DNA from: an uncultured Muribaculaceae bacterium
Lineage (GTDB): Bacteria > Bacillota_I > Bacilli_A > RF39 > UBA660
Assembly (NCBI GenBank): GCA_964493665.1
Contig: CAZBOZ010000001.1
Span: forward strand, 24,591-88,590
Reading direction: 5' to 3'
DNA length: 64,000 nucleotides
The notes under the pieces are model-generated. The model was not told the DNA's origin and searched no databases. It saw nothing but the letters and a program-made list of their open reading frames with translations. Position numbers and translations under genes: made by a program. The stretch's first letter is position 1, and the number at the start of each line of letters is the position of its first letter. Of the stretch, positions 19,175 through 54,361 are shown piece by piece.

Positions 19175-19933
19175 ATGAAAAAATTGATTAATTTTAATTT
19201 AACGATGGGGGTTATTCATTTTATACAAGGAGTTACAATGCTTATTTTAGCTCTTACAGTAAGTAAAATAATGGATTTTAAACCAATAATATATACATCT
19301 TTTTTAAAATTTGATTATACTTCTATGAGCCTAGTAACAAATTTTAAAGAAGTCTTTGCTTTGCCATTTGCTTTACTAGTAAGCTGCTTTTTATTTTTAT
19401 CAGCCTTATTTCATTTTATGATAATTGTTTTTCATAAAAAATATGCAGAAGATTTGAATAAAAATATAAATAAGTTTAGATGGTATGAATATGCATTATC
19501 TTCTTCATTAATGATAGTTTTAATAGCAGTATTATTTGGGGTTTATGATTTAGGAGCTCTAATATTAATATTTGCGTTAAATGCCACCATGAATTTATTT
19601 GGCTTGCTAATGGAAAAAATGAATCAAGGTAAATCAAAACCCGATTGGACTCCATTTTTGTTTGGATCGTTTGCTGGCATTATTCCTTGGGTAGTAATTA
19701 TTATGTTTGCCTTTGGGAATTCTGATCCTTCATCAGTCCCATGGTTTGTCTATGCTATTTTTGGCTCATACTTTATCTTTTTCAACTTATTTCCAATCAA
19801 TATGATTTTACAATATAAAAAGATAGGTAAGTGGAAAGATTATCTTTACGGAGAAAAATGGTACATCATATTAAGTCTATCAGCTAAAACGGTATTGGCT
19901 TGGTTAGTCTTTTTTGGAGTAATGCAACCATAA
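19175..19933 (+). CDS. heliorhodopsin-like 7-TM retinal protein
   Basis: 252 aa with 7 predicted TM helices and a Lys in helix 7 (LSLSAKTVLAW). Blocks LSALFHF, FRWYEYALSSSLMIVLIA, FGSFAGIIPW and QYKKIGKW match my recollection of heliorhodopsin family motifs. Confidence 0.7.
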   Translation: MKKLINFNLTMGVIHFIQGVTMLILALTVSKIMDFKPIIYTSFLKFDYTSMSLVTNFKEVFALPFALLVSCFLFLSALFHFMIIVFHKKYAEDLNKNINKFRWYEYALSSSLMIVLIAVLFGVYDLGALILIFALNATMNLFGLLMEKMNQGKSKPDWTPFLFGSFAGIIPWVVIIMFAFGNSDPSSVPWFVYAIFGSYFIFFNLFPINMILQYKKIGKWKDYLYGEKWYIILSLSAKTVLAWLVFFGVMQP

Positions 19934-27762: not shown

Positions 27763-27818
27763 ACTTGAAGTTATTTAAATATTTTATTATAATAATTTTA
27801 TAAGATAGGTGAGTAGTC

Positions 27819-30686
27819 ATGAAAGAAAAAAAGGGTTTTGCTTTAGTTGAATCTATTTTTATGATAGTGTTTCTTTCTGTGGCACTTCTTTTAGTATATA
27901 AAGCTTTTGCTTCTTCTTTTCAAGACGAAAGAAGAAGAATAAAATATGATAATACTACAAGTATTTATGAATTATATTTTATTAAACAATACTTTGAAGA
28001 AAATGGTATTTTAGATTATTTAACCACTGCTACTTTAACTGATGGGTATTTGGAAATAAATTGTTCTACAATAACCTCTAATAATAGTGAATATTGTGAT
28101 TTTTTAACATCATTTGATAGTTTTGATGTTAATAAAATATATATCACTAAATATGATATGGATGGAGTAGCATATGATAATTTAGATCCAACCACCATTG
28201 ATTATTTTAAAACTTTATCAGGCACGGATACAATTTCATATAGAATTATTGTTTGGTTTAATAATGACCAGTATGCTAGTATGAAATTAGGTGTTCCATA
28301 CCATAATTTACTTGTTTTATTAAATGGTGGTACTTGGACAGGGACTAATAGTCAAACTCTCATAGAAGGTGAAACAACAAATATTTTAAATCCTGTGAAA
28401 GATGGTTATATATTTTTAGGTTGGAGCATAAACGGAGCGGGCAGCAGTGTAGTTGATACTACTTTTACAATGGGGACTGAAGATACAATTATAGTTGCAA
28501 CCTGGATGGATTATTCGGTAATTTATACTTACACAGGAGATTATCAGACGTTTTCTATACCATTAACCGGCTATTATCAACTAGAAGTTTGGGGAGCCGA
28601 GGGAGGAAGTTACGATCCAACTCTAGGTCAACAAAAAGGAGCATATGCTAGTGGTTATATTAGTTTAAACAAAGATGATGTAATATATATTTATGTTGGA
28701 GGAGCAGGCACTACTAATGGGAATGGGACTACCATTCCTGGAGGGTTTAATGGTGGTGGCACTGCTTTGGGTTATAGTGATTCAAATAATGGTTCCGGGG
28801 GTGGAGCTACTGATATTAGATTAGATACTAGCTTGAACTCAAGAATATTAATAGCGGCCGGCGGTGGTGGCACAGTAGGACCAACAGTTGCTAGCGGAAA
28901 TTATGGGGGGTCTTTAATAGCAACAAATGCTGTTTGGACAGCAGGCAGTACATATACTGCTACAGGCGGAACACAAATTAGTGCTGGCGGTGGTACTGTA
29001 AGTGGAGCATTTGGTCAAGGAGCTAATGGTGGGACAACATATCGTGCTGGCGGTGGCGGTGGATATTATGGTGGTGGGGTTCATACATATACTGGTGCTG
29101 GGGGGTCCTCATTTATAAGTGGGTATGCTGGATCTAATGCTATAACAAGTTCATCATCTACTACGGCCACAAACAATACAATTCATTATAGTAATAATTA
29201 TTTTATCAATGGTTCTATGGCAACTAGTGTAAATTCTGGAAATGGCTATGCCAAAATAACGTTTATTGGAGAAGAAGCTCCAACTAGAATAAACACTAAT
29301 TTAAATAATGTAAGATACATAAAAGATTGCGTAAACGGTAATACTACTGATACTACAGCTTCTTGGGTGGAGTTACAAGCAATATATCAAGGGATAAATG
29401 TTGCCAAAGGCAAAACTGTAACAGGAACATCAGCTCAGAATGCTAGTTATCCTTATACAAGAATAGTGGATGGCGATATAACGCCAGCTAATTTTGCTAT
29501 TTCATCAGTAAACGGTGCACAATGTGTGACGGTAGATCTTGGGCAAACATATAATTTAGATGAAGTAGCTGTATGGCATTATTGGCTAGATGGCAGAACT
29601 GTATATAGCAATGTAACGTCAGTATCAAATGACAATTCTAGCTGGTCTACAGCAATCAGTTCTTTATATGCTGAAAATAGTCAAGGCAAAAGAATAAATG
29701 CTTATCAAAATGATTATCCATATACAGGGGCAGTTCAAACATTTACAGTGCCATATACTGGCAATTATAAAATTGAATTATGGGGAGCCAGTGGTGGTAA
29801 TGGTAGTGCAACATACACTGGCGGTATGGGCGGCTATACAAAAGGTGAAATATATTTAACAAAAGATACCGATTTATATATATATGTTGGTGGGGTTGGG
29901 CCAGCAGTAGGAACTGCAACGAACACAGCTGGTGGATATAACGGTGGTGGTAATTGCTACTCTTATGCAGCAAATTATGTTACAGGATGTGGTGGCGGAG
30001 CAACAGATATTAGAACTACATCAGGTGTATGGAACAATTCCACATCACTTGCTTCAAGAATCATGGTAGCTGGTGGTGGTGGTGGTGGCCATTATCGTTC
30101 TGATACTTCAAGCAAAGGTGGCCAAGGTGGTGGGTTAACCGGAAATATATCTTATGGCGAAACCTCGGCTTATGGCAAACTATATCCAACTGGCGGATCT
30201 CAAACTGCTGGTGGTGCAAAAGGCTATGTAGACGCTTCTTCAAGGATAACTTCTTTAACAGATTCTGGATTTGGCTATGGTGGTTCAGTTAATGCCTCCG
30301 CATTAACATGGAACCTTATAGGTGGCGGAAGTGGCTATTGGGGTGGTGGAGCCGGAGTATTTATGGCTGGATCTGCGGGTTCGTCATATATTAGTGGCCA
30401 TACGGGTTGTATAGCAATAACTTCATCATCAAGCACATCGCCAAGAACAGGAACAGCAGGGGCACCATGTTCACAAGGCGGAACAGATAATTTATGTAGC
30501 ATTCATTATAGTGGCAATTATTTTACGAACACTTTAATGATAGATGGTGCTGACTACACTTGGACAAATATTAAAGCCTCTAAAGTTGGAACAAATGCTA
30601 TGCCACGACCAAATGGAGGCAGTTATCAGCCTGGATATGGTAACACTGGTAATGGTTATGCCAAAATAACTTATATTGGTAACTAA
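27819..30686 (+). CDS. giant prepilin-type modular surface protein (pilin-like N-terminus, Listeria-Bacteroides repeat, 2 Gly-rich modules, discoidin-like domain)
   Basis: KKGFALVESIFMIVFLSV is a class III signal peptide with the G-F-x-x-x-E motif. DGYIFLGWSINGAG...TIIVATW is a flg_new-like repeat. Two paralogous modules of about 250-320 aa run from YTGxxQTF..WGAxGG to GNGYAKIT(F/Y)IG. VDLGQTYNLDEVAVWHYW is F5/8 type C-like. Confidence 0.6.
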   Translation: MKEKKGFALVESIFMIVFLSVALLLVYKAFASSFQDERRRIKYDNTTSIYELYFIKQYFEENGILDYLTTATLTDGYLEINCSTITSNNSEYCDFLTSFDSFDVNKIYITKYDMDGVAYDNLDPTTIDYFKTLSGTDTISYRIIVWFNNDQYASMKLGVPYHNLLVLLNGGTWTGTNSQTLIEGETTNILNPVKDGYIFLGWSINGAGSSVVDTTFTMGTEDTIIVATWMDYSVIYTYTGDYQTFSIPLTGYYQLEVWGAEGGSYDPTLGQQKGAYASGYISLNKDDVIYIYVGGAGTTNGNGTTIPGGFNGGGTALGYSDSNNGSGGGATDIRLDTSLNSRILIAAGGGGTVGPTVASGNYGGSLIATNAVWTAGSTYTATGGTQISAGGGTVSGAFGQGANGGTTYRAGGGGGYYGGGVHTYTGAGGSSFISGYAGSNAITSSSSTTATNNTIHYSNNYFINGSMATSVNSGNGYAKITFIGEEAPTRINTNLNNVRYIKDCVNGNTTDTTASWVELQAIYQGINVAKGKTVTGTSAQNASYPYTRIVDGDITPANFAISSVNGAQCVTVDLGQTYNLDEVAVWHYWLDGRTVYSNVTSVSNDNSSWSTAISSLYAENSQGKRINAYQNDYPYTGAVQTFTVPYTGNYKIELWGASGGNGSATYTGGMGGYTKGEIYLTKDTDLYIYVGGVGPAVGTATNTAGGYNGGGNCYSYAANYVTGCGGGATDIRTTSGVWNNSTSLASRIMVAGGGGGGHYRSDTSSKGGQGGGLTGNISYGETSAYGKLYPTGGSQTAGGAKGYVDASSRITSLTDSGFGYGGSVNASALTWNLIGGGSGYWGGGAGVFMAGSAGSSYISGHTGCIAITSSSSTSPRTGTAGAPCSQGGTDNLCSIHYSGNYFTNTLMIDGADYTWTNIKASKVGTNAMPRPNGGSYQPGYGNTGNGYAKITYIGN
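28527..29276 (+). repeat. internal Gly-rich module copy 1 (intragenic duplication)
   Basis: Protein-level repeat from YTYTGDYQTFSIPLTGYYQLEVWGAEGG to GNGYAKITFIGEE. The terminal about 30 nt are also near-identical to copy 2 at the DNA level. Confidence 0.6.
29718..30686 (+). repeat. internal Gly-rich module copy 2
   Basis: Runs from YPYTGAVQTFTVPYTGNYKIELWGASGG to GNGYAKITYIGN, with the same order of Gly runs, DIR motif and NYF motif as copy 1. Confidence 0.6.
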
Positions 30687-30689
30687 AAA

Positions 30690-31691
30690 ATGGTGATTAT
30701 ATTAAAAAATAAAATATTGAATTTTTTAAAATTTAATTATAAATATATAATATTGAGTTTTTTTACATTTTTACTAATAACTATAAAACTTCCTTATGTA
30801 ATTTATATTCCTGGCGGAACTATAGATTTAACAGATAGAGTCATCGTTTCTAATAACAATAATTTAAGTGGCTCATTTAATATGGCTTATGTATCAATGT
30901 TAGATGGACATGTCCTTTTAATATTATTAAGTTATATTATGCCTAATTGGGATTTAGTAAAAAGTGCTGATATAGTATATGAAGATGAAAGTGTTGAAGA
31001 AATGCTTGAAACTGACAAAATATTTTATGAAGAATCAATAAATAGTGCTATAGTAATTGCTTATCAAGAGGCGAATGCTAATATTATTATAAATGGCCTT
31101 AAAAACGAAATAGTATTTATTTCTTCTTATGCTGAAACCGACTTGAAATTAGGCGATATATTAATTCAAGCTGATAATATCAATATAGAGGATTTAGATA
31201 AATATAAAGATGTTATTGAAAGTCATGTCGTAGGTGATGAAATTAATTTAATTGTATTAAGGAATAATAAAGAAACAACTGCTAACATTATGGTTAAAAA
31301 TATTGATGGTGAAAAGAAAACGGGAATAGCAGTAGTATCACTATATGATTTTTCTGCCGATCCAAAAATAGAAGTAAAGATGGTAGAAAGCGAATCTGGC
31401 CCTTCCGGGGGTTTAATGATAGCTTTAGACATATATGATAAACTAACAGACTTTGATTTAAGCCGTACTAGAAGAATAGCCGGTACAGGAACAATTGATA
31501 ATGAAGGCAATGTTGGCGAAATAGGAGGAATTAAGTACAAGATCTTAGGAGCTATAAATGATGAAGTTGATGTTTTTCTTTGTCCATCTGCTAATTACGA
31601 AGAAGCTAAAGTTATATTAGACAAAGAAAGTTCAACTATGAAGCTAATAAGTGTTAACTCTTTAAAAGAAGCAATTGAAGCCTTAAGTTAA
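30690..31691 (+). CDS. YlbL/SepM-like membrane protease (PDZ plus Lon-like S16 domain)
   Basis: N-terminal TM helix with the PYVIYIPGG motif, a PDZ-like middle, and a C-terminal ESGPSGGLMIALDIY...IAGTGTIDNEGNVGEIGGI that parallels B. subtilis YlbL. Confidence 0.8.
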   Translation: MVIILKNKILNFLKFNYKYIILSFFTFLLITIKLPYVIYIPGGTIDLTDRVIVSNNNNLSGSFNMAYVSMLDGHVLLILLSYIMPNWDLVKSADIVYEDESVEEMLETDKIFYEESINSAIVIAYQEANANIIINGLKNEIVFISSYAETDLKLGDILIQADNINIEDLDKYKDVIESHVVGDEINLIVLRNNKETTANIMVKNIDGEKKTGIAVVSLYDFSADPKIEVKMVESESGPSGGLMIALDIYDKLTDFDLSRTRRIAGTGTIDNEGNVGEIGGIKYKILGAINDEVDVFLCPSANYEEAKVILDKESSTMKLISVNSLKEAIEALS

Positions 31692-37829: not shown

Positions 37830-38606
37830 ATGGATAGATTAGGCGAGTTATTACAAGAATTAGGAATATCCAAAGTTAGATTAGCTAAATATTTAGGCGT
37901 ATCTAGACAAATGGTTTATAATTATTTAGAAATGGATAGTATAAATAAATGGCCAAAAGAAAAGAAAATTTTATTTTTTAAGTTATTAAATATTGAAGAT
38001 GGTGATGACACCACTATTAAAGCAATAAAAGTAAATGCTGATTATTTAATGGAAGTAGAAAGTAGATTAAATCAAGGAGTAAAAGATCTATCTGATTTAG
38101 ATAACTATTTTGATTTTAATGGCCTTAAAAAAGAAGAACAAGAATTAATAGCTGATATTACATATTTATTAAAAGAAAAATTATTAGATGAGAAAAAAGG
38201 AGCTGAAAATTTTCAAGCCTTAACATATTTATATCATTTGTTGCAAGCGTATGAAAATGTTCCAGAAATTAAGTATATTTTTGGTTATATGTCAAAAGCT
38301 ACAGGATTTACTAATCCCAATACTTTTGCTTTTAATGAAGATAAACAATTTATATTTGAAGGAATATTATATTCAGCCTTAACCCTATACAATAGTGGGG
38401 GAACAAGCAAGAGTAAGTTAATTGATTCACATAAAAGATTTGTTCAAGAGATAGAACAAAGGAATGAAGAAAAACTAACCCGTACTCAACAATTAAGCAC
38501 TTTAAGAATTCAAGCTTTAAAAGAGCTTAATTATACTAAAATAGACGAATCTAATGCTGCCGAGATATTTGAAAAGATGGCAGAGATAGAGTCTAGGAAA
38601 GTATAA
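37830..38606 (+). CDS. XRE-type helix-turn-helix domain protein with a long C-terminal domain
   Basis: N-terminal ISKVRLAKYLGVSRQMVYNYL HTH. The C-terminal 200 aa are uncharacterised. Confidence 0.55.
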   Translation: MDRLGELLQELGISKVRLAKYLGVSRQMVYNYLEMDSINKWPKEKKILFFKLLNIEDGDDTTIKAIKVNADYLMEVESRLNQGVKDLSDLDNYFDFNGLKKEEQELIADITYLLKEKLLDEKKGAENFQALTYLYHLLQAYENVPEIKYIFGYMSKATGFTNPNTFAFNEDKQFIFEGILYSALTLYNSGGTSKSKLIDSHKRFVQEIEQRNEEKLTRTQQLSTLRIQALKELNYTKIDESNAAEIFEKMAEIESRKV

Positions 38607-38670
38607 TAAATAACAGCATATAATATATATTATGTTAACCAAAGTTAATTTAATGTAATAAAATATAAAG

Positions 38671-38710
38671 AAAAAAGAACTAAATAAATATAATAATTAT
38701 TAGTTCTTTT
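38671..38710. terminator. inverted repeat / bidirectional terminator candidate between convergent genes
   Basis: aaaagaactaa ... ttagttctttt 11-bp arms around a 16-nt AT loop. Confidence 0.35.
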
Positions 38711-38761
38711 TATATAACTTATTATAAAAATATAATGAAAATATTATTAAATAAAAATAAA

Positions 38762-39664
38762 TTAATTATCTAAATGACTATGTGGATGATATTCTTCATA
38801 GTCTTTTTTTAACTGTTCATTTACTAAATGAGCATATATTTGAGTAGTAGTTATATCACTATGACCAAGTAACTCTTGAATTATACGCAAATCTGCCCCA
38901 TTTTGAAGTAGGTGGGTAGCGAAAGTGTGTCTAATAATATGTGGCGATATATCTTTCTTAATACCTTTTTTAAGACATTCTAATTTAATAAATTTAAATA
39001 TTGATTGGCGACTTAAAGATTTTCCATAACGATTTATAAAAATAAATTCCGTATTTTTGTCTTTTAAAATAATTGGTCTATATTTATATATATATTCTTC
39101 TAAATGTTTTTTAGCTTCATCAGTAATAGGTATAATTCTTTCTTTGCTCCCCTTCCCCATAACTCTAACTAGGTCTTCTTTAAAATCAATATTATTTATT
39201 TTAAGGTTAACTAATTCACTAATTCTAATACCTGTAGCATATAAAAGCTCTAAAATAGCTTTATTACGATAATCATAAGGATTTTTACATTCAATATCTA
39301 ATAATTTAGTTATTTCTTCAATAGTTAAATAAACTGGTAATAATTTATCTTTTTTGGGCATTTTAAGACTTATACAAGGACTTTTTGCTAGTAATCCATC
39401 GCTTACTAGAAAATTATAAAAACTCTTTAATACAGTTATTTTATGAGTAATAGATGTTACTTTAATATTTTTAGTTTCTTTTTGGATATAATTTTTAATA
39501 TTATCAGTAGTAATATCTAATATATTTTGGTTTTTAAAATACATTTGAAATAACTTTAATTCATACATATAACTATCTATAGTATTATTTGAATACTTAC
39601 ATTCATATTTCAAATAATCTAAATATTTTAATATTAAAGGATCATAATTAAATGTTTTCTTCAT
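38762..39664 (-). CDS. tyrosine recombinase, XerC/XerD family
   Basis: C-terminal catalytic box HIIRHTFATHLL...LGHSDITTTQIYAHL with R..H..R..Y. 300 aa with an N-terminal SAM-like core-binding domain. Confidence 0.8.
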   Translation of the reverse strand: MKKTFNYDPLILKYLDYLKYECKYSNNTIDSYMYELKLFQMYFKNQNILDITTDNIKNYIQKETKNIKVTSITHKITVLKSFYNFLVSDGLLAKSPCISLKMPKKDKLLPVYLTIEEITKLLDIECKNPYDYRNKAILELLYATGIRISELVNLKINNIDFKEDLVRVMGKGSKERIIPITDEAKKHLEEYIYKYRPIILKDKNTEFIFINRYGKSLSRQSIFKFIKLECLKKGIKKDISPHIIRHTFATHLLQNGADLRIIQELLGHSDITTTQIYAHLVNEQLKKDYEEYHPHSHLDN

Positions 39665-39773
39665 ATTTATCTACTCCATTTATATTATACCATTTTATTT
39701 ATAAAAAATAAACGAACATTTATTTGCCATCTTGTTTTTATATGTTATAATAATTATGGATGTGATAATAATT

Positions 39774-40970
39774 ATGGAATTACTAGCTAATATATTAAAA
39801 CCAACTAAATTAAAAGATGTTATAGGCCAAGAACATTTAATAGGTCCTAATAAAATACTTAGTACTTTAATTAAAGAAAATAAGATGTTTTCCATTATTT
39901 TATATGGTAAACCTGGCATAGGTAAAACTAGTATAGCAAATGCTATAGTAAATGAATTAAATAAACCATATCGATTTTTAAATGCTGTAATTAATAATAA
40001 ACAAGATTTTGATATTGTCATAGAAGAAGCTAAAATGGAAGGTGAAATGTTACTTGTTATAGATGAATTACATCGTATGAATAAAGATAAACAAGATTTA
40101 CTCCTACCCTATATTGAAAATGGTTTAATTATTTTAATTGGATTAACTACTGCTAATCCATATCATAAAATAAATCCTGCAATTAGAAGTAGATGTCAAA
40201 TATTTGAATTACATGAATTAACTACTCTTGATATTAAAAAAGGTCTTAAAAAGGCTTTAAAAAGCCTTAAAGAAGTTAAAATAGATGAAGATTCACTCAA
40301 CTTTATTACCATTAGTTCTTCAGGAGACTTTAGAAGTGCTTTAAACTTACTTGAAATGGCTTATTATGCTAGTAAAGATCATAACATTAATATTACTTTA
40401 TTAGAAAGTATTCATGCTAAAAAAGTGTTTTATCATGATAAAGATCAAGATGGTCATTATGATGTCTTAAGTGCTTTTCAAAAATCAATTAGAGGTAGTG
40501 ATGTTGATGCTTCTCTACACTATTTAGCAAGACTTATTGAAGCCGAAGATTTAGACAGTATTTATAGAAGAATGACAGCATGTGCCTATGAAGACATAGG
40601 CCTTGCAAATCCTGGTATGGGGCCTAAAGTAATGGCTGCTATAGAGGCATCTGAATTATTAGGGCTTCCTGAAGCTAGGCTTCCTTTAGCAGTAGTAGTT
40701 ACTGAACTTGCTTTATCTCCTAAAAGTAATAGTGCTTATTTAGGTATAGATAAAGCTCAAAGTGATATTAGAAAAGGTAGTACAGGAAATGTTCCAGATC
40801 ATTTAAAAAATCCTAGTTCTACCTATAAATATCCTCATGATTATCCAAAATATTATATCAAACAACAATACTTACCAGATTTAATTAAAGACCATAAATA
40901 TTATCAAGCTAAGAATAATAAATATGAAGAAAACCTAGTAAAAATAAATAATGAAATGAAAAAAGACTAA
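39774..40970 (+). CDS. rarA: replication-associated recombination protein A (RarA/MgsA AAA+ ATPase)
   Basis: Start moved to the internal ATG MELLANILKPTKLKDVIGQEHL. Walker A GKPGIGKTS, Walker B LLVIDELHR, and the MgsA C-terminal helical domain. Confidence 0.85.
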   Translation: MELLANILKPTKLKDVIGQEHLIGPNKILSTLIKENKMFSIILYGKPGIGKTSIANAIVNELNKPYRFLNAVINNKQDFDIVIEEAKMEGEMLLVIDELHRMNKDKQDLLLPYIENGLIILIGLTTANPYHKINPAIRSRCQIFELHELTTLDIKKGLKKALKSLKEVKIDEDSLNFITISSSGDFRSALNLLEMAYYASKDHNINITLLESIHAKKVFYHDKDQDGHYDVLSAFQKSIRGSDVDASLHYLARLIEAEDLDSIYRRMTACAYEDIGLANPGMGPKVMAAIEASELLGLPEARLPLAVVVTELALSPKSNSAYLGIDKAQSDIRKGSTGNVPDHLKNPSSTYKYPHDYPKYYIKQQYLPDLIKDHKYYQAKNNKYEENLVKINNEMKKD

Positions 40971-40997
40971 TTAATTATTAGTCTTTATTTTTTTTAA
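40961..40997 (+). terminator. rho-independent terminator
   Basis: agactaat taatt attagtct hairpin overlapping the rarA stop, followed by a run of about 10 T. Confidence 0.6.
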
Positions 40998-40999
40998 TA

Positions 41000-41200
41000 A
41001 AAAGTACCCAAAGGAGAGTATGTAGTGATAAAAACCCGTTCGCAAACAGGTGGGCATCACATTAACATCTTTAGGATTCTAACACACTTAATGGGCTAGC
41101 ATTCAACACGGATATTAAATTAGATTCCCAATAAAATCACTTAGTCGGTTTTATATAAACACACCCTACCCTCAGGCATTTTAATTATACCATTTTTTAG
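41000..41200 (-). ncRNA. candidate structured small RNA (possibly 6S/SsrS-like), minus strand
   Basis: An intergenic island of about 200 nt that is clearly GC-richer than any other non-coding stretch in the window. On the minus strand, about 10-15 nt downstream of the aspS stop, there is an extended -10 TGGTATAAT. I know of no ORF there and saw no tRNA-like motifs. Confidence 0.3.
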
Positions 41201-46054: not shown

Positions 46055-46363
46055 TTATTCAAATATATTAATTACTATATCGCCATTTTCTTTAGTAACA
46101 TATGAAGAAGCACTTATAGCTTTTTTAGTAATTGGATCTATAACTTCATCTAAATAGCCTATTTCATATAAATCACTTAAATAAACAATATCATTTAAGC
46201 ATCTATTTTCATTCCAACATTGAATGGCTTTAACTTTAATTTTATTTTTTATAGTTAAATCTACTCTACTTTCATATCTATCACTTACTTTATTATAAGT
46301 TGGTATGCCAATAATTAAAATAACAGCAATAATAGTTATAAATACAACTAATCTATTTGTCAT
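46055..46363 (-). CDS. hypothetical membrane-anchored protein
   Basis: 102-aa ORF with an N-terminal TM helix (LVVFITIIAVILIIGI) and two Cys in the soluble part. Confidence 0.4.
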   Translation of the reverse strand: MTNRLVVFITIIAVILIIGIPTYNKVSDRYESRVDLTIKNKIKVKAIQCWNENRCLNDIVYLSDLYEIGYLDEVIDPITKKAISASSYVTKENGDIVINIFE

Positions 46364-47520: not shown

Positions 47521-47545
47521 ATTAAAAAAAGCCATAAGGCTTTTA
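47521..47545 (-). terminator. rho-independent terminator after the RimK-like gene
   Basis: On the minus strand, a gtaaaagccttatggctttt hairpin then a U-run. A TATAAT for tgt follows. Confidence 0.5.
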
Positions 47546-48442
47546 CTTGTTTTCATTTATTTTGTCTCTTAAAAGAGTTAAAAATATATCTTCTTCGTAT
47601 GTTCCACGAGTCCTTTTTAATGATTTAAATCCGGGAACGGAATTAACTTCACAAATATAATAGCTATTATTTTCGCCAATTAAAATATCTATGCCACATA
47701 TATCTAATTTCATTGCTTTTGCTACTTTAATAGATAGTTCTTTTAATTCCGGAGTTGCTTCATAATATAAAGCTTCTCCTCCTTGAGCTAAATTACTTCT
47801 AAAATCTTTACCATTACTAGTTCTAATAGCACTACCAATAAATTTACCCCCTACTACATAGCATCTAATATCTTTACCATAGGATGATTTAATATATTCT
47901 TGGAATATTACTTTTCCTTTATAACGACTATATTTTAAATCAAATGTTTCTTTATTATCTATTAGAAAGACACTTTTACCTTCACGGCCTTTAATATATT
48001 TTAAAATAAATATAGGACTATTAAAAATTTTAGTAATATCTTCATATTCCAATAGTTGCTTGCCAGTTTTTCTTACTGAATATAAGGTCTTAGGACTTTT
48101 TATATTATATTCAGTTAATATTTGATGAGTTTTAAGTTTGTTTTTAGCATCTACCATTGCTTGAGAAGAATTAAATACTTTTACACCAAGGGTTTCTAGC
48201 TGTCTTATAAAAAATATATCTAATTTACGACTTATAGCGTATCTAGGAAATACCTTTATTTCTTTTCCTTCGTAATAGATGGTATTTTTATCACCTGTTG
48301 AAATAATAAATTTAGATAAATTATATACTTCTAAATCAATATCATAATGATTTTTGGCTTTAGTAATAAGCCTTTCAATAAAACCATTATTTATCTTACG
48401 ATTATAAGTCCAATTTGAATAAAAAAACCATACTTTTTCCAT
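47543..48442 (-). CDS. RimK-family ATP-grasp alpha-L-glutamate ligase-like protein
   Basis: ATP-grasp fold. DFRSNLAQGG matches the RimK DFRSN..GG motif. EVNSVPGF and a Lys-rich B-loop are present. Confidence 0.7.
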   Translation of the reverse strand: MEKVWFFYSNWTYNRKINNGFIERLITKAKNHYDIDLEVYNLSKFIISTGDKNTIYYEGKEIKVFPRYAISRKLDIFFIRQLETLGVKVFNSSQAMVDAKNKLKTHQILTEYNIKSPKTLYSVRKTGKQLLEYEDITKIFNSPIFILKYIKGREGKSVFLIDNKETFDLKYSRYKGKVIFQEYIKSSYGKDIRCYVVGGKFIGSAIRTSNGKDFRSNLAQGGEALYYEATPELKELSIKVAKAMKLDICGIDILIGENNSYYICEVNSVPGFKSLKRTRGTYEEDIFLTLLRDKINENK

Positions 48443-49303
48443 TTATTCTTCACCTAGTTCTTTTATTTTATTTCTTATACGACCATTTGGAAAAACAATT
48501 TTAGGACCCTTATTGGTGAACAAAACAATCATCATTTCATCATCTAATGCTTTTTTAATAGTCTTACTGTTGTTTTTCTGCCATATTCTTGACATTATCT
48601 TAGTCAAATCTTTAGTAGCTTTTTTTTCTACTTTTATTTCTCTTTTATCAAAATAGATAGCATCTAAAAGTAAATTCATAACCTTTTCTAATTCACCGGC
48701 TGTTAATCCTACTTTAATATTCCTAACTTCTATTAATTTTTTATTTAAATAATTAATTGCGGTATATTTAGCACTTACGTTTCTTTGAAATTCTAAATAT
48801 TCTTTAAAATCAAAATCATATACAACTTGTTTATAGACATTTTCTTCAAAATATTTTGGTTCTTCTTTCATTAATAAAAGTAATCTTTGATGAGAAGGAT
48901 CGGGATTGGTCATATCATATTGATTAAAATTCATATGAATACCACAATTATGACCTTTATCCATTAAAATACTGCCATCAGAGAAGTTCATTATTCTAAG
49001 TAGTGTACTATATATCTTCTTTATTTTTTTAACTGGTAATGGATCTAAAACTATTTCAAATGAATAGTTTCCAATAATAGTTCCATCACTAGTAAAATAG
49101 CCATTATCTCCTACAGCTTGTTTAATTTTTTTAAGTAAAGTTCTAATAAAAGTATATCTTTCTCTTTCATAATTAACTGATATTTCAATCTCTAAACCAA
49201 TTGAGTTAAAATCTACTGGCTTTTTAATTCTATCTATTCCATAAGATGGCTGAACATCAAGTAATTCATCATATCTTTTACTATAATTAATTTCTTCAAT
49301 CAT
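48443..49303 (-). CDS. hypothetical protein, candidate glutamine-synthetase-like amidoligase (Amidoligase_2/GCS2-like)
   Basis: 286 aa. SIGLEIEIS resembles the N-terminal G-x-E-x-E strand of GS-like carboxylate-amine ligases. It is otherwise unrecognised. The assignment is motif-level only. Confidence 0.4.
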   Translation of the reverse strand: MIEEINYSKRYDELLDVQPSYGIDRIKKPVDFNSIGLEIEISVNYERERYTFIRTLLKKIKQAVGDNGYFTSDGTIIGNYSFEIVLDPLPVKKIKKIYSTLLRIMNFSDGSILMDKGHNCGIHMNFNQYDMTNPDPSHQRLLLLMKEEPKYFEENVYKQVVYDFDFKEYLEFQRNVSAKYTAINYLNKKLIEVRNIKVGLTAGELEKVMNLLLDAIYFDKREIKVEKKATKDLTKIMSRIWQKNNSKTIKKALDDEMMIVLFTNKGPKIVFPNGRIRNKIKELGEE

Positions 49304-50978
49304 TGTTATATTCCCTTTCTATTACCCTAATTATTCTTTTCATTTTTTTAATTAATTTACTAAAATACCAAGCGTTATGATTTAATCTTCGATATTTTTT
49401 CCCTATTTCTAATTGTATAGTTGGTATACCTAACTCTTTATTAATATAATAACTAATTGTTTTAGTTCTTGCTAAAAACTTAGTATCAATAGTAACTTTT
49501 TTATTACCAACTTGTAATTTTTTTTGAATTTTATTAATTAAACTTATATTGCCATTTACATTTTGATAATTATTCACGCCAATTTCAAAATCGCGATCAT
49601 CATCATATTCTAAACCATGAATATCAATTAAAAATTTTATTTTATTTTCTAAAATAAATTTTTTTAATTCTTCTTTATAAATGTTGTTTTTAATATGATT
49701 ATAGTCCTCTCCATCATTATTAGTAAAAATGATGTTAGAATTAGTAGTTAAATGCAATACTTTAACTAAACTATTAGTATGATATTCTCTTACTTTATGT
49801 TTATCATTTCTTAAATGATAGTGAGCATGAGGAGCTGATAAAATAACATTATTGGTTCCTTTATATATTTCAAAATTAGCTATTTTCTTAGTTGATTTTA
49901 AATTATTAAATTCTTTTAATAATTCTAATGTTTTCTTTGGTTTATCTATAAACATAGCATCCCCGAAAGAAAAGAATCGATAATTATGTTTTTTGGCTTC
50001 TTTATAAGCATTTAATATATTATCTCTACCAGCTAAAGCACTAACTAGCATTAATAAAGTTGATTTTGGCAAGTGAAAATTAGTAATAAGTGAATCTATA
50101 GCTTTAAATTCATATCCAGGATATATAAATATATCAGTTTCACCAAAATCTTCTTTAAAAATATTATGTTTATTATAAGTTGCTTCAAGAACTCTTGTCG
50201 AAGTAGTACCAACTGCTATTATTTTACTATTTCTTTTTTTAGCATTATTTAATATTTCAGCGGTTTCTTTACTTAATTCATAATATTCACTATGCATTTT
50301 GTGATCTAAAATATTACTTTCTGAAACTGGTTTAAAAGTGCCAATCCCAACATGTAAGGTTATATAAGTAATTATGATGCCTTTTCTTTTTATTGATTCT
50401 AATAATTTTTTAGTAAAATGAAGCCCAGCAGTTGGTGCAGCAGCACTACCAAAATATTTGGCATATACGGTTTGATATCTATTATTATCTTCTAATTTTT
50501 CATGGATATAAGGTGGTGTTGGCATTTCACCTAAAGAATCTAATATTTCATATAAAATGCCTTCATATATTAATTCTATTTCAATTATGCCGTCTTCTTT
50601 TTTATTTAAAACTTTAGCTTTTAAAGCATTCTTTTTAAATATTATAATATCATTTATGTTAAGTCTTCTGGAATTTCTAATTAAAGCTTCCCACGTATTA
50701 TTTTTAATGTTTTTAAGTAATAATACTTCTACTTTAGCATCAGTTTTTTCTTTGACGCCATAAAGTCTGGCGGGGATTACTTTAGTATCATTTAATACTA
50801 AAACATCACCAGGATTTAAATAATTAATAATATTATAAAATCTAGTATGTTTAATTTTACCATTTTCTTTATTTAATACTAATAATTTAGAATGGGTTCT
50901 TTTTTCAATTGGAGTTTGAGCAATATATTTTTTATCTAAATTATAATTGTAATAATTAATGTCTAGGTGTTTTTCCAT
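49296..50978 (-). CDS. queA: S-adenosylmethionine:tRNA ribosyltransferase-isomerase QueA fused to a C-terminal FGase/AstE-AspA-like Zn-amidohydrolase-type domain
   Basis: The N-terminal 345 aa or so are collinear with QueA (PGDVLVLNDTKVIPARL, AAPTAGLHF, VGTTSTR, FHLPKSTLLMLVSA, YRFFSFGDAMFI). A further 215 aa or so follow in the same frame and contain ILSAPHAHYH and LIDIHGLEYDDD. Confidence 0.75.
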   Translation of the reverse strand: MEKHLDINYYNYNLDKKYIAQTPIEKRTHSKLLVLNKENGKIKHTRFYNIINYLNPGDVLVLNDTKVIPARLYGVKEKTDAKVEVLLLKNIKNNTWEALIRNSRRLNINDIIIFKKNALKAKVLNKKEDGIIEIELIYEGILYEILDSLGEMPTPPYIHEKLEDNNRYQTVYAKYFGSAAAPTAGLHFTKKLLESIKRKGIIITYITLHVGIGTFKPVSESNILDHKMHSEYYELSKETAEILNNAKKRNSKIIAVGTTSTRVLEATYNKHNIFKEDFGETDIFIYPGYEFKAIDSLITNFHLPKSTLLMLVSALAGRDNILNAYKEAKKHNYRFFSFGDAMFIDKPKKTLELLKEFNNLKSTKKIANFEIYKGTNNVILSAPHAHYHLRNDKHKVREYHTNSLVKVLHLTTNSNIIFTNNDGEDYNHIKNNIYKEELKKFILENKIKFLIDIHGLEYDDDRDFEIGVNNYQNVNGNISLINKIQKKLQVGNKKVTIDTKFLARTKTISYYINKELGIPTIQLEIGKKYRRLNHNAWYFSKLIKKMKRIIRVIEREYNND

Positions 50979-51906
50979 ATATTCTGCCCTTCTCTTCATC
51001 CATTAGATTACCTAAAAAATCTATTGATCCACCTAAAAACATTCTAGCTTTTTCTTCTTCTGACACTGGTCTTCTAAAAATCCCATTAACTTCAGCTTGA
51101 AAAGTTTGAATACCATAACTTGTTTGAATTCCAGCATATCTATATACTTGATTACACAATGCACGCTTTTTACTGGCTTGAAACTTAGTATTAAATTTTA
51201 AATTAATAATGCCATATGGTATATAACTACTTCTAGCGATGTTTTGAAAAGAAATATATTCTCTAATGTATTCTCCATGGTTAGTTCCAAAAGCTATATC
51301 AAAATCATTTTTATGGGCATCCTCAAAATGTTTTGCTCCATGTAAATCCATATGTAATAAAATATTATTATCTTTTAAAAACTTTATAAATTGCGGATTT
51401 TGATGATCAACTGCAGCATTGGCTTCTAAATTGTTGTTTCTAACATAAGCAAAACAATTTAAAACTTTAGCTAAATATAAAGCATAAGCGCCAGTATAAG
51501 GCTCATCCAATTTTTCTTCTTCATCAGCAGTCTTATAATAATAATAGGTTAAAACATGAGGATTTAAACCAAAGTCTTCAGCAATAAACTCAATTTTTTT
51601 CTTTTCGCCATTTATTAGGATTGCGTTAATATCTAAGTCTTCTGGGCTAGTTATTATCTCTTGAGTTATTATTTTATTTAATATGTCATCTTCATCTTTT
51701 TTAGCTAAGTCTATAGCTTTTATTATATCTCTAGTAGCCATAACTTTTTCAGTCGTTTTTACTGAATGAGGAGATGAAATTATAATAGGAATTTTTCCAA
51801 TTACCACTTTAAAACTTGGCTTATCATTATCTCCTGAATACCTATTTTTTTTAAAAGGTAATTCATCAAATCTTATTTCTTCAATTGAAACATTTGTAAG
51901 TGTCAT
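50956..51906 (-). CDS. FGase-like (N-formylglutamate amidohydrolase / AstE-AspA superfamily-like) hydrolase candidate
   Basis: 316 aa. IIISSPHS and LHMDLHGAKH resemble the HutG-type S-x-PH and D-x-H zinc-ligand blocks. It is a paralog of the C-terminal domain of the QueA fusion. Confidence 0.5.
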   Translation of the reverse strand: MTLTNVSIEEIRFDELPFKKNRYSGDNDKPSFKVVIGKIPIIISSPHSVKTTEKVMATRDIIKAIDLAKKDEDDILNKIITQEIITSPEDLDINAILINGEKKKIEFIAEDFGLNPHVLTYYYYKTADEEEKLDEPYTGAYALYLAKVLNCFAYVRNNNLEANAAVDHQNPQFIKFLKDNNILLHMDLHGAKHFEDAHKNDFDIAFGTNHGEYIREYISFQNIARSSYIPYGIINLKFNTKFQASKKRALCNQVYRYAGIQTSYGIQTFQAEVNGIFRRPVSEEEKARMFLGGSIDFLGNLMDEEKGRIYGKTPRH

Positions 51907-53968: not shown

Positions 53969-54361
53969 TTACTCGCACTCTAAAGCGTCTATATTTGTAT
54001 AATATCTGTTATTTTTAAAATAAATTATAACATCTTTATCATTCATTGATGAACCATCTCTGGGATCAGTTAAAAGTATTCCTTTATTGGGTTCAATATA
54101 TTTATTTAATATTAAATCTTCAATAGTTAAGTTTTTGCAACTGTATGTTTCGCTATTAATAACACAATTTTCATCCAAGGTATTTTCCTGGCCATAAATA
54201 ATCCCAGCTTTTTTTATCATAGCAATTTTTGTGCAGTACATATGAGTTCTTACTTTTTGAGATATAGAAATTACAGCTGGTACAGCTGCTGTTATCATTA
54301 ATGATATTATTACTATTACTGCTAAAAGCTCAATTAATGTAAAACCCTTTTTTATTTTCAT
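53969..54361 (-). CDS. prepilin-type N-terminal cleavage/methylation domain protein (type IV pilin/pseudopilin-like)
   Basis: [27 protein letters not shown] is the classic G-F-T-L-I-E class III signal plus hydrophobic helix. 130 aa with two C-terminal Cys. Confidence 0.7.

Follow-up and report, generated by a model that had tools for sequence, protein, structure and literature searches.

The locus described here raises the question of what a gene for a 955-residue protein that starts like a type IV prepilin is doing among the housekeeping genes of an uncultured bacterium. It lies in a 64-kb stretch of contig CAZBOZ010000001.1 (64,000 nucleotides, hereafter the window), where an intact open reading frame (ORF) runs from its ATG start to the stop codon inclusive at positions 27819..30686 of the plus strand. 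Public sequence collections contain a protein with 100% identity to its product (P0001), encoded on an NCBI contig of 125 kb and on a Logan contig of 12 kb. A preliminary description of the window had seen in this product an oversized prepilin-type protein, either a tip adhesin or a surface protein that takes the pilin route, a view that is borne out by an invariant prepilin motif, by standalone homologues of pilin size, by pilins encoded at the same locus in relatives and by genes for the assembly ATPase (T2SSE) beside or close to the homologous genes of relatives. We consider it probable, with a probability of roughly 0.68, that the product of the ORF is a modular minor type IV pilin, by which adhesin modules are presented on a filament.

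The N-terminus was examined as the first element of this reading. The class III signal KKG/FALVE, which the preliminary description had picked out (the slash marks the predicted cleavage), is plain in the translation, which begins MKEKKG/FALVESIFMIVFLSVALLLVY, with a charged leader that ends in glycine and a hydrophobic tract that carries a glutamate at mature position 5. The leader peptide MKEKKG comprises residues 1-6 (27819..27836, plus strand), with predicted prepilin-peptidase cleavage after Gly6, and is followed by the alpha-1 helix at residues 7-41 (27837..27941, plus strand), in which FALVE with its Glu5 precedes the hydrophobic tract. The helix is supported by conservation and by AlphaFold, which placed it at residues 6-41 in the full-length protein and at 5-40 in the module alone, with a predicted local distance difference test (pLDDT) score of about 80-90. 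When all six translated frames of the window were scanned for a stringent pattern (Met and a basic leader, then G, [FMILVYW]xxxE and a hydrophobic tract), two sites emerged, one in the gene at 27819 and one at 54346 on the minus strand, both at the N-termini of ORFs, as compared to 0 in 400 shuffles. Across a module alignment of 15 sequences, which span two subfamilies that are 24-29% identical, G6 (-1), F7 (+1), L9 (+3) and E11 (+5) are invariant.

The same alignment bears on a different reading of this N-terminus, in which the product is secreted or joins the wall by the common Sec route, its N-terminus is a long Gram-positive signal peptide that signal peptidase I would remove (after AFA31, for example), and the likeness to G/FxxxE is a coincidence. 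An AxA-like site (K28-A-F-A31/S-S) does lie past the hydrophobic stretch, and prepilin hidden Markov models (HMMs) stay below threshold on the protein. However, this candidate site is not conserved, position -3 being A, T, V, L or I and position -1 being A, S, T or N, whereas the four prepilin positions do not vary. A conserved Glu within the hydrophobic core is atypical of Sec signals, the prepilin motif never arose in the shuffles, and standalone homologues carry KKGFTLMET or KGFVMVET signals and adjoin pilins of family PF07963. We therefore regard a Sec-dependent protein as very unlikely.

Behind the helix, residues 42-165 (27942..28313, plus strand) make up the globular part of the pilin module, with helices and four beta-strands, as judged from AlphaFold and from standalone homologues. 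A structure search with the AlphaFold model revealed no significant structural neighbour of this globular module in the PDB. When the N-terminal module alone was used in a word-indexed homologue search, only 3 proteins were recovered, and it was an exhaustive search of a module profile against 1.84 billion cluster representatives that revealed the family. This profile matched 1289 cluster representatives, 376 of them at E<=1e-10, and every alignment started from residue 1. Many of these homologues are standalone proteins of 145-190 amino acids (aa) with canonical KKGF.L.ET signals, such as MKKKGFVMVETIVM or MKNKKGFTLMETIVM, and they stop exactly where the module of the modular pilin ends (...GYRLVIWFNDNNIASLKLG versus ...SYRIIVWFNNDQYASMKLG). 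Their best NCBIfam matches are to ComGD, ComGF and ComGE, all of them weak, with a top score of 27.9 bits (ComGD).

Two of the standalone homologues, P0159 and P0161, are 41-42% identical to residues 1-158 and are encoded at the same locus as the window gene. Their genes stand in the order small pilin, PF07963 pilin of ~190-200 aa, minus-strand membrane protein, ylbL and mutS, with ylbL 44-46% and mutS 70% identical to the window counterparts. On contigs L044 (536..3570) and L045 (594..3501), a 160-aa pilin followed by one of ~190-200 aa (PF07963) takes the place of the single 955-aa gene of the window, and the position upstream of ylbL-mutS marks a conserved minor-pilin locus. Since standalone homologues are found at this very locus, the small minor pilin is the positional counterpart of the window gene, in which ~790 residues have been added. 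A small pilin enlarged in this way fits the definition of a modular pilin, in which a pilin module precedes one or more domains that are not peculiar to type IV pilus biology (PMC8179133); in the window protein, the pilin module is followed by Flg_new, two PF12810 domains and a CBM32-like module.

An orthologue, P0004 on contig L041, displays exact synteny with the window: ruvX, yceG, greA, tig, lon, the pilin with glycine-rich domains (GRDs), ylbL and mutS. The neighbouring proteins are 77-92% identical between the two (ylbL 61%), and the modular pilins 55%. Compared part by part, the signal and alpha-1 are the most conserved (78%) and the second glycine-rich domain, GRD2, is the least (47%, with 60 gap positions). 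The gene evolves faster than those around it, and such a pattern would be expected if the assembly module is conserved and bears an exposed binding module that diversifies. The Firmicute-type order tig, lon, ylbL, mutS was also seen on L005-L007, L030, L032 and L041, all of which are titled 'uncultured Muribaculaceae bacterium'; the Bacteroidota label of these metagenome-assembled genome (MAG) records looks wrong.

We then delineated the added modules, using an AlphaFold2 run on the full protein with a 50-sequence alignment, which gave a model with a mean pLDDT of 86 and a predicted template modelling score (pTM) of 0.75. The resulting domain order is prepilin N-terminus, ~160-aa pilin-sized module, Flg_new/InlB B-repeat, GRD1, CBM32/discoidin-like module and GRD2. 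The repeat, noticed in the preliminary description as InlB-B/flg_new-like, occupies residues 169-227 (28323..28499, plus strand), where Flg_new (PF09479) matches with E=1.4e-6 and 28.8 bits, just above its cut-off of 27. The InlB-type repeat model of NCBIfam (TIGR02543) reaches 17.2 bits and falls below its cut-off of 20.95, and Foldseek matched the region to the InlB B-repeat 7pv9 with a probability of 0.96 and E=0.087. This repeat is likely a spacer.

The two glycine-rich modules, which had been described as paralogous, are indeed copies of one another (48% identity over 119 aa, E=5e-20), and Pfam assigns them to PF12810 (ALK_LTK_GRD) in two stretches, with E=6.9e-85 and 285.4 bits versus a gathering threshold of 24.5. 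[quoted passage not shown] GRD2, also of the ALK/LTK type, covers residues 633-955 (29715..30683, plus strand), with the best PF12810 stretch at 647-953, and is the most divergent module. The preliminary description had spoken of a poorly characterised glycine-rich family; glycine-rich it is, but the family is PF12810, which is now structurally defined as the ALK/LTK TNF-like plus polyglycine-II ligand-binding domain. The model agrees with this assignment: a Foldseek search against the PDB returned 21 ALK/LTK TNF-like plus glycine-rich chains at E=1.8e-8 to 1.9e-6 and a probability of 1.0, and the suggestion to model the protein thus led to solved ALK/LTK structures at E about 1e-8. By sequence alone, GRD2 matches the Caenorhabditis elegans ALK homologue 7lir (E=5e-4).

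Between the two GRDs, a CBM32/discoidin-like beta-sandwich spans residues ~498-632 (29310..29714, plus strand; pLDDT >90). The single sequence stays below threshold, as the NedA-like F5/8-type-C family PF22633 scores 22.1 bits versus a cut-off of 27.8. A profile of 24 homologous segments, however, reached the solved CBM32/discoidin modules 4a3z, 4zy9, 2rv9 and 4lks (E=2.6e-4 to 7e-3), in agreement with the discoidin-like domain originally proposed. The HMM checks that had been suggested for the protein thus gave a mixed outcome, PF12810 and Flg_new scoring above cut-off, F5/8-type-C below it and N_methyl producing no match. Taken together, these analyses show a pilin-sized N-terminal module onto which B-repeat, GRD1, CBM32-like and GRD2 modules have been grafted.

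Weaker Foldseek matches of the same model, to the tail tip of mycobacteriophage Bxb1 (9d93_Qa, E=1.5e-3) and to the fibre of cyanophage Pam3, raise the possibility that the gene is what is left of a phage tail fibre or receptor-binding protein captured in the chromosome, and TNF-like plus glycine-rich domains are indeed used by phage fibres (PMC9608196). The GRD fold that these proteins have in common accounts for such matches, and the N-terminus is a pilin module rather than a fibre shaft or baseplate adaptor. The flanks are without phage genes, in a housekeeping locus that is syntenic in a relative with neighbours 77-92% identical. A phage origin was rejected on this context and synteny, and we hold it to be highly improbable.

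Whether such a subunit could be assembled depends on the filament machinery, and here both the window and its relatives were informative. On the minus strand of the window, at 53969..54361, lies a gene for a second, canonical pilin of 130 aa (MKIKKG/FTLIELL), which matches PF07963 at E=2e-7 and TIGR02532 with 31.4 bits versus a cut-off of 16.3. Its N-terminus resembles ComGC/GspG, and the gene stands alone between obg and a TM2/zinc-ribbon gene plus ruvA. This pilin shows that the source genome encodes type IV filament subunits. A further ORF of 102 aa (46055..46363, minus strand) has a hydrophobic N-terminus, MTNRLVVFITIIAVILIIGIPTYNKV, with a ComGC-like 'L.DLYEIGYLDEVIDP' motif; it is without a G/FxxxE signal and has no Pfam or NCBIfam match, and may be a degenerate pilin-like protein.

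Among relatives, GRD pilins of a GFF[LV][SV]ET subfamily carry a pilin module homologous to that of the window gene. In L042 (8464..13246) and L007 (4586..10198), a T2SSE gene lies immediately upstream of the GRD-pilin gene and is divergent from it, the ATPase of L007 matching Pfam at E=2e-124; in L021 (3196..4476) about 2 kb separate a T2SSE gene from the GRD gene. The row in L007 comprises, in this order, T2SSE, an E5-bearing GRD pilin of 680 aa, a shorter pilin of 176 aa (NNAFSLVELL) and a 515-aa GRD plus CBM32 protein whose N-terminus is class III-like without E5, and as a whole it resembles a minor-pilin tip set or tip-complex cassette. The GRD pilin P0065 is encoded between recA and comEA-comEC, <=10 kb from T2SSF and prepilin-peptidase genes, while P0009 and other GRD pilins are orphans amid housekeeping genes, as is the window gene.

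Several observations nevertheless weigh against a filament subunit. At ~100 kDa the protein has double the size of even the largest modular pilin that has been characterised. PF07963 and TIGR02532 both miss threshold on its N-terminus (no match at E<=1 in Pfam or NCBIfam), the sole HMM hint there being ComGF at E=0.045-0.17 and 12-14 bits; PF07963 is present in several GRD homologues. Because these models stay sub-threshold, the prepilin signal of the window protein rests on motif, conservation and homology rather than on HMMs. Finally, no gene for an assembly ATPase (T2SSE), platform protein (T2SSF) or Peptidase_A24 was found within the 64-kb window by Pfam, tblastn or a Walker-A search. Pfam covered 54 of the 58 window ORFs of >=100 aa, all those other than short overlaps of a longer ORF on the opposite strand, and the proteins of relatives served as tblastn queries. 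The preliminary description had stated that no pilus assembly genes lie in the window, which holds for ATPase, platform and peptidase but overlooked the 130-aa pilin.

A rival reading takes the protein to be a membrane-tethered surface adhesin that borrows a pilin N-terminus, inserted and perhaps cleaved in the manner of a prepilin, with alpha-1 as its anchor and its domains crossing the wall without ever being polymerised. The window is without assembly genes, the subunit is very large, and the second pilin and T2SSE found at relatives' loci are missing from the window locus; moreover, the N-termini of many GRD homologues bear different anchors or signals, and the GRD family as such therefore does not depend on filament display. 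On the other hand, E5, which is relevant to filament assembly and not to membrane anchoring, is invariant, conservation extends beyond the helix to the whole globular pilin module, and the module family is genomically linked to other pilins and T2SSE. On balance we judge a tethered adhesin to be unlikely.

For a modular minor pilin, which we favour, the following route can be envisaged. Prepilin peptidase would cleave the modular prepilin after Gly6, and the alpha-1 helix would anchor it in the membrane, from which a T2SSE ATPase and platform protein, presumably encoded elsewhere in the genome, would extract it into a Com-type or type IV pilus. Its abundance there would be low and, given its ~100-kDa size, it would most likely be located at or near the tip. 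Its distal modules may then bind gut ligands such as sugars or proteins, CBM32 recognising glycans or the GRDs recognising other ligands, in parallel with what TNF-like plus glycine-rich domains do in phage tail fibres and in ALK.

The setting of the gene was analysed for signals of expression and signs of transfer. The gap between lon and the pilin gene measures 72 bp and contains a promoter-like TTGAAG-17-TATAAT (27765..27793, plus strand), which with 10/12 consensus matches is the best sigma-70-like match of the region, followed by a Shine-Dalgarno-like AGGTGAG (27807..27813, plus strand; direct sequence reading) 5 nt 5' of the ATG; an AT-rich hairpin spans the lon stop codon. Promoter-like sites overall are not above chance (26 observed versus 23.2 in shuffles), so that the site is weak evidence. 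The gene may possibly have its own expression from the hairpin, promoter-like site and AGGTGAG, on the weak evidence that these signals provide. Only 4 nt past the pilin stop begins a gene for a PDZ plus Lon_C protease of the YlbL/SepM type (30690..31691, plus strand), a locus marker whose position next to the pilin genes is kept in L041, L042, L044 and L045. We claim no functional link between the modular pilin and this SepM-YlbL-like protease, for which there is conserved position only and a score of 133.9 versus an equivalog cut-off of 200.

The pilin gene stands out by its GC content, ~38% as compared to ~26% for the window, with 41% in the glycine-rich part and 25% in the pilin module, while GC content at third codon positions (GC3) shows a slight rise only. 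Since the pilin module is at 25% GC and GC3 is barely raised, it is the glycine codons of the GRD part that account for most of the increase. Horizontal transfer was considered as a source of the raised GC and is not favoured, given this codon effect and the syntenic locus.

The GRDs of the window protein belong to a wide family of >1674 homologues, nearly all from uncultured 'Bacilli bacterium' MAGs of gut, rumen or caecum. The best 120 homologues divide into ~34 with a class III signal and E5, 26 that are class III-like without E5, and 60 with other anchors or fragments; many of these 60 look SipW-type, and some are fragments without an N-terminus. SipW-like N-termini (...GTSYA[AI]L..., ...GSSFALLQD...) were seen in P0095, P0098, P0101, P0111, P0114, P0118 and others. 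Because many GRD homologues have SipW-like instead of pilin signals, GRD adhesin modules appear, from their predicted N-termini, to have two or more routes of export. The rabbit-gut Bacilli MAG Lapin-016 bin44 (L013, L018, L019, L021, L027, L031, L033) holds at least 7-8 GRD paralogues, a strong lineage-specific expansion, and L022 (3914..17244) carries tandem ORFs of 2376 aa and 2025 aa with a common start, which are giant, prepilin-type and GRD-related.

These observations can be joined in a broader, tentative reading, which we would sooner doubt than assert: uncultured low-GC gut Bacilli may rely chiefly on GRD pilins as adhesins, a repertoire that has so far gone unrecognised. Their type IV tip complex would be made of pilins bearing ALK-type TNF-like/polyglycine-II domains, some with E5 and some without it (cap-like), as seen in L007, and would be served by a T2SSE of the same locus, the family having grown to >=8 paralogues per genome and to subunits of >2000 aa. 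If this were true, the bacterial GRD would be a general ligand-recognition scaffold common to pili, phage fibres and metazoan ALK/LTK.

Other features of the window were noted alongside the pilin locus. A heliorhodopsin gene (19175..19933, plus strand; PF18761, E=3e-97) is present in this 26%-GC genome, whose relatives are from gut and rumen, where one would not expect a protein that senses light or is driven by it. At ~38000..41000, GC skew and gene orientation change sign beside a XerC/XerD-type tyrosine recombinase gene (38762..39664, minus strand), and this region is probably a replication terminus, or possibly an origin. In the region 47543..51906 (minus strand), the QueA ORF is 567 aa long with Queuosine_synth over residues 15-351 only, and the ~210-aa extension after this domain has no Pfam match; upstream of tgt, the QueA ORF has as neighbours a RimK-like ATP-grasp gene and two ORFs, of 316 aa and 286 aa, that Pfam does not match.

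Should the modular pilin be confirmed, uncultured gut Bacilli with small AT-rich genomes would mount large multi-domain adhesins on type IV filaments, and would do so by lengthening a small minor pilin whose place in the chromosome is conserved. It would also give a bacterial setting with a testable binding role to a glycine-rich domain best known from human ALK/LTK and from phage receptor-binding proteins. The locus is of value as an example with good documentation and as an entry point to a large family that is still uncharacterised, not as a system of a new kind.

Modular pilins with lectin or von Willebrand factor A (vWA) modules are experimentally established adhesins (PMC8179133, PMC9934059), and PilB (vWA) and PilC (lectin) of Streptococcus sanguinis provide the precedent for a tip-adhesin role (PMC8179133; PMC9934059). 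The window protein resembles them in its monoderm setting, its class III signal with Glu5, its small pilin module with C-terminal binding modules, a carbohydrate-binding module among the grafts and its proposed location at the tip with other minor pilins. It differs in that the mature protein would be ~100 kDa as compared to ~50 kDa for PilB, and in that it bears four modules (B-repeat, GRD, CBM32, GRD) where PilB and PilC have one graft. Its gene lies amid housekeeping genes and not in a pil operon, and its pilin module is of a different sequence family, with weak ComGD/ComGF-like similarity. Joining a prepilin motif to PF12810 also has precedent: Dataset S1 of Raynaud et al. 2021 lists IPR012902-PF12810 (2 proteins) and IPR012902-PF12810x3 (1), along with IPR012902-IPR013378x2 (9) and IPR012902-IPR000421 (1), and Dataset S2 lists one PilY1 with a PF12810 module (PMC8179133). 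Like the IPR012902-PF12810 entries, the window protein has one PF12810 domain or more behind a prepilin motif. Those 3 entries are listed, not analysed, in the catalogue, whereas the window protein is missed by IPR012902-type models and adds Flg_new and CBM32. About half of the best 120 homologues have prepilin-like N-termini, and the GRD-pilin family is far larger than the catalogue indicates. In the literature searched we found no discussion of bacterial PF12810 proteins, the search returning one unrelated fungal paper.

The module family is also like ComGD/ComGF of Bacilli, which are its best, weak HMM matches, and P0065 adjoins comEA, comEC and recA; at 14-28 bits versus equivalog cut-offs of 70-80 and without comG operon context, however, the window protein is not a member of either family. 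With the extracellular TG domain of ALK/LTK (7lir, 7lrz, 7nx1, 7n00) the window GRDs have the PF12810 family and the predicted fold in common, but they are bacterial, duplicated and sit on a pilin instead of a receptor tyrosine kinase. We know of no ALKAL-type ligands in bacteria. The Pam3 phage fibre recognises its receptor via a TNF-like plus glycine-rich domain (PMC9608196), and TNF-like plus polyglycine parts occur in the receptor-binding proteins Pam3 gp24 and Salmonella phage S16 gp38 (cited in PMC9608196). The window GRDs are like these proteins in giving weak structural matches to phage receptor-binding proteins in Foldseek, and unlike them in sitting on a predicted bacterial filament subunit rather than on trimeric fibres with a chaperone. 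Both the general principle of modular pilins and the pilin-PF12810 architecture are thus already known; what is new at this locus are the combination of modules, the size of the protein, its origin in a small pilin whose locus is conserved, and how broad its family is.

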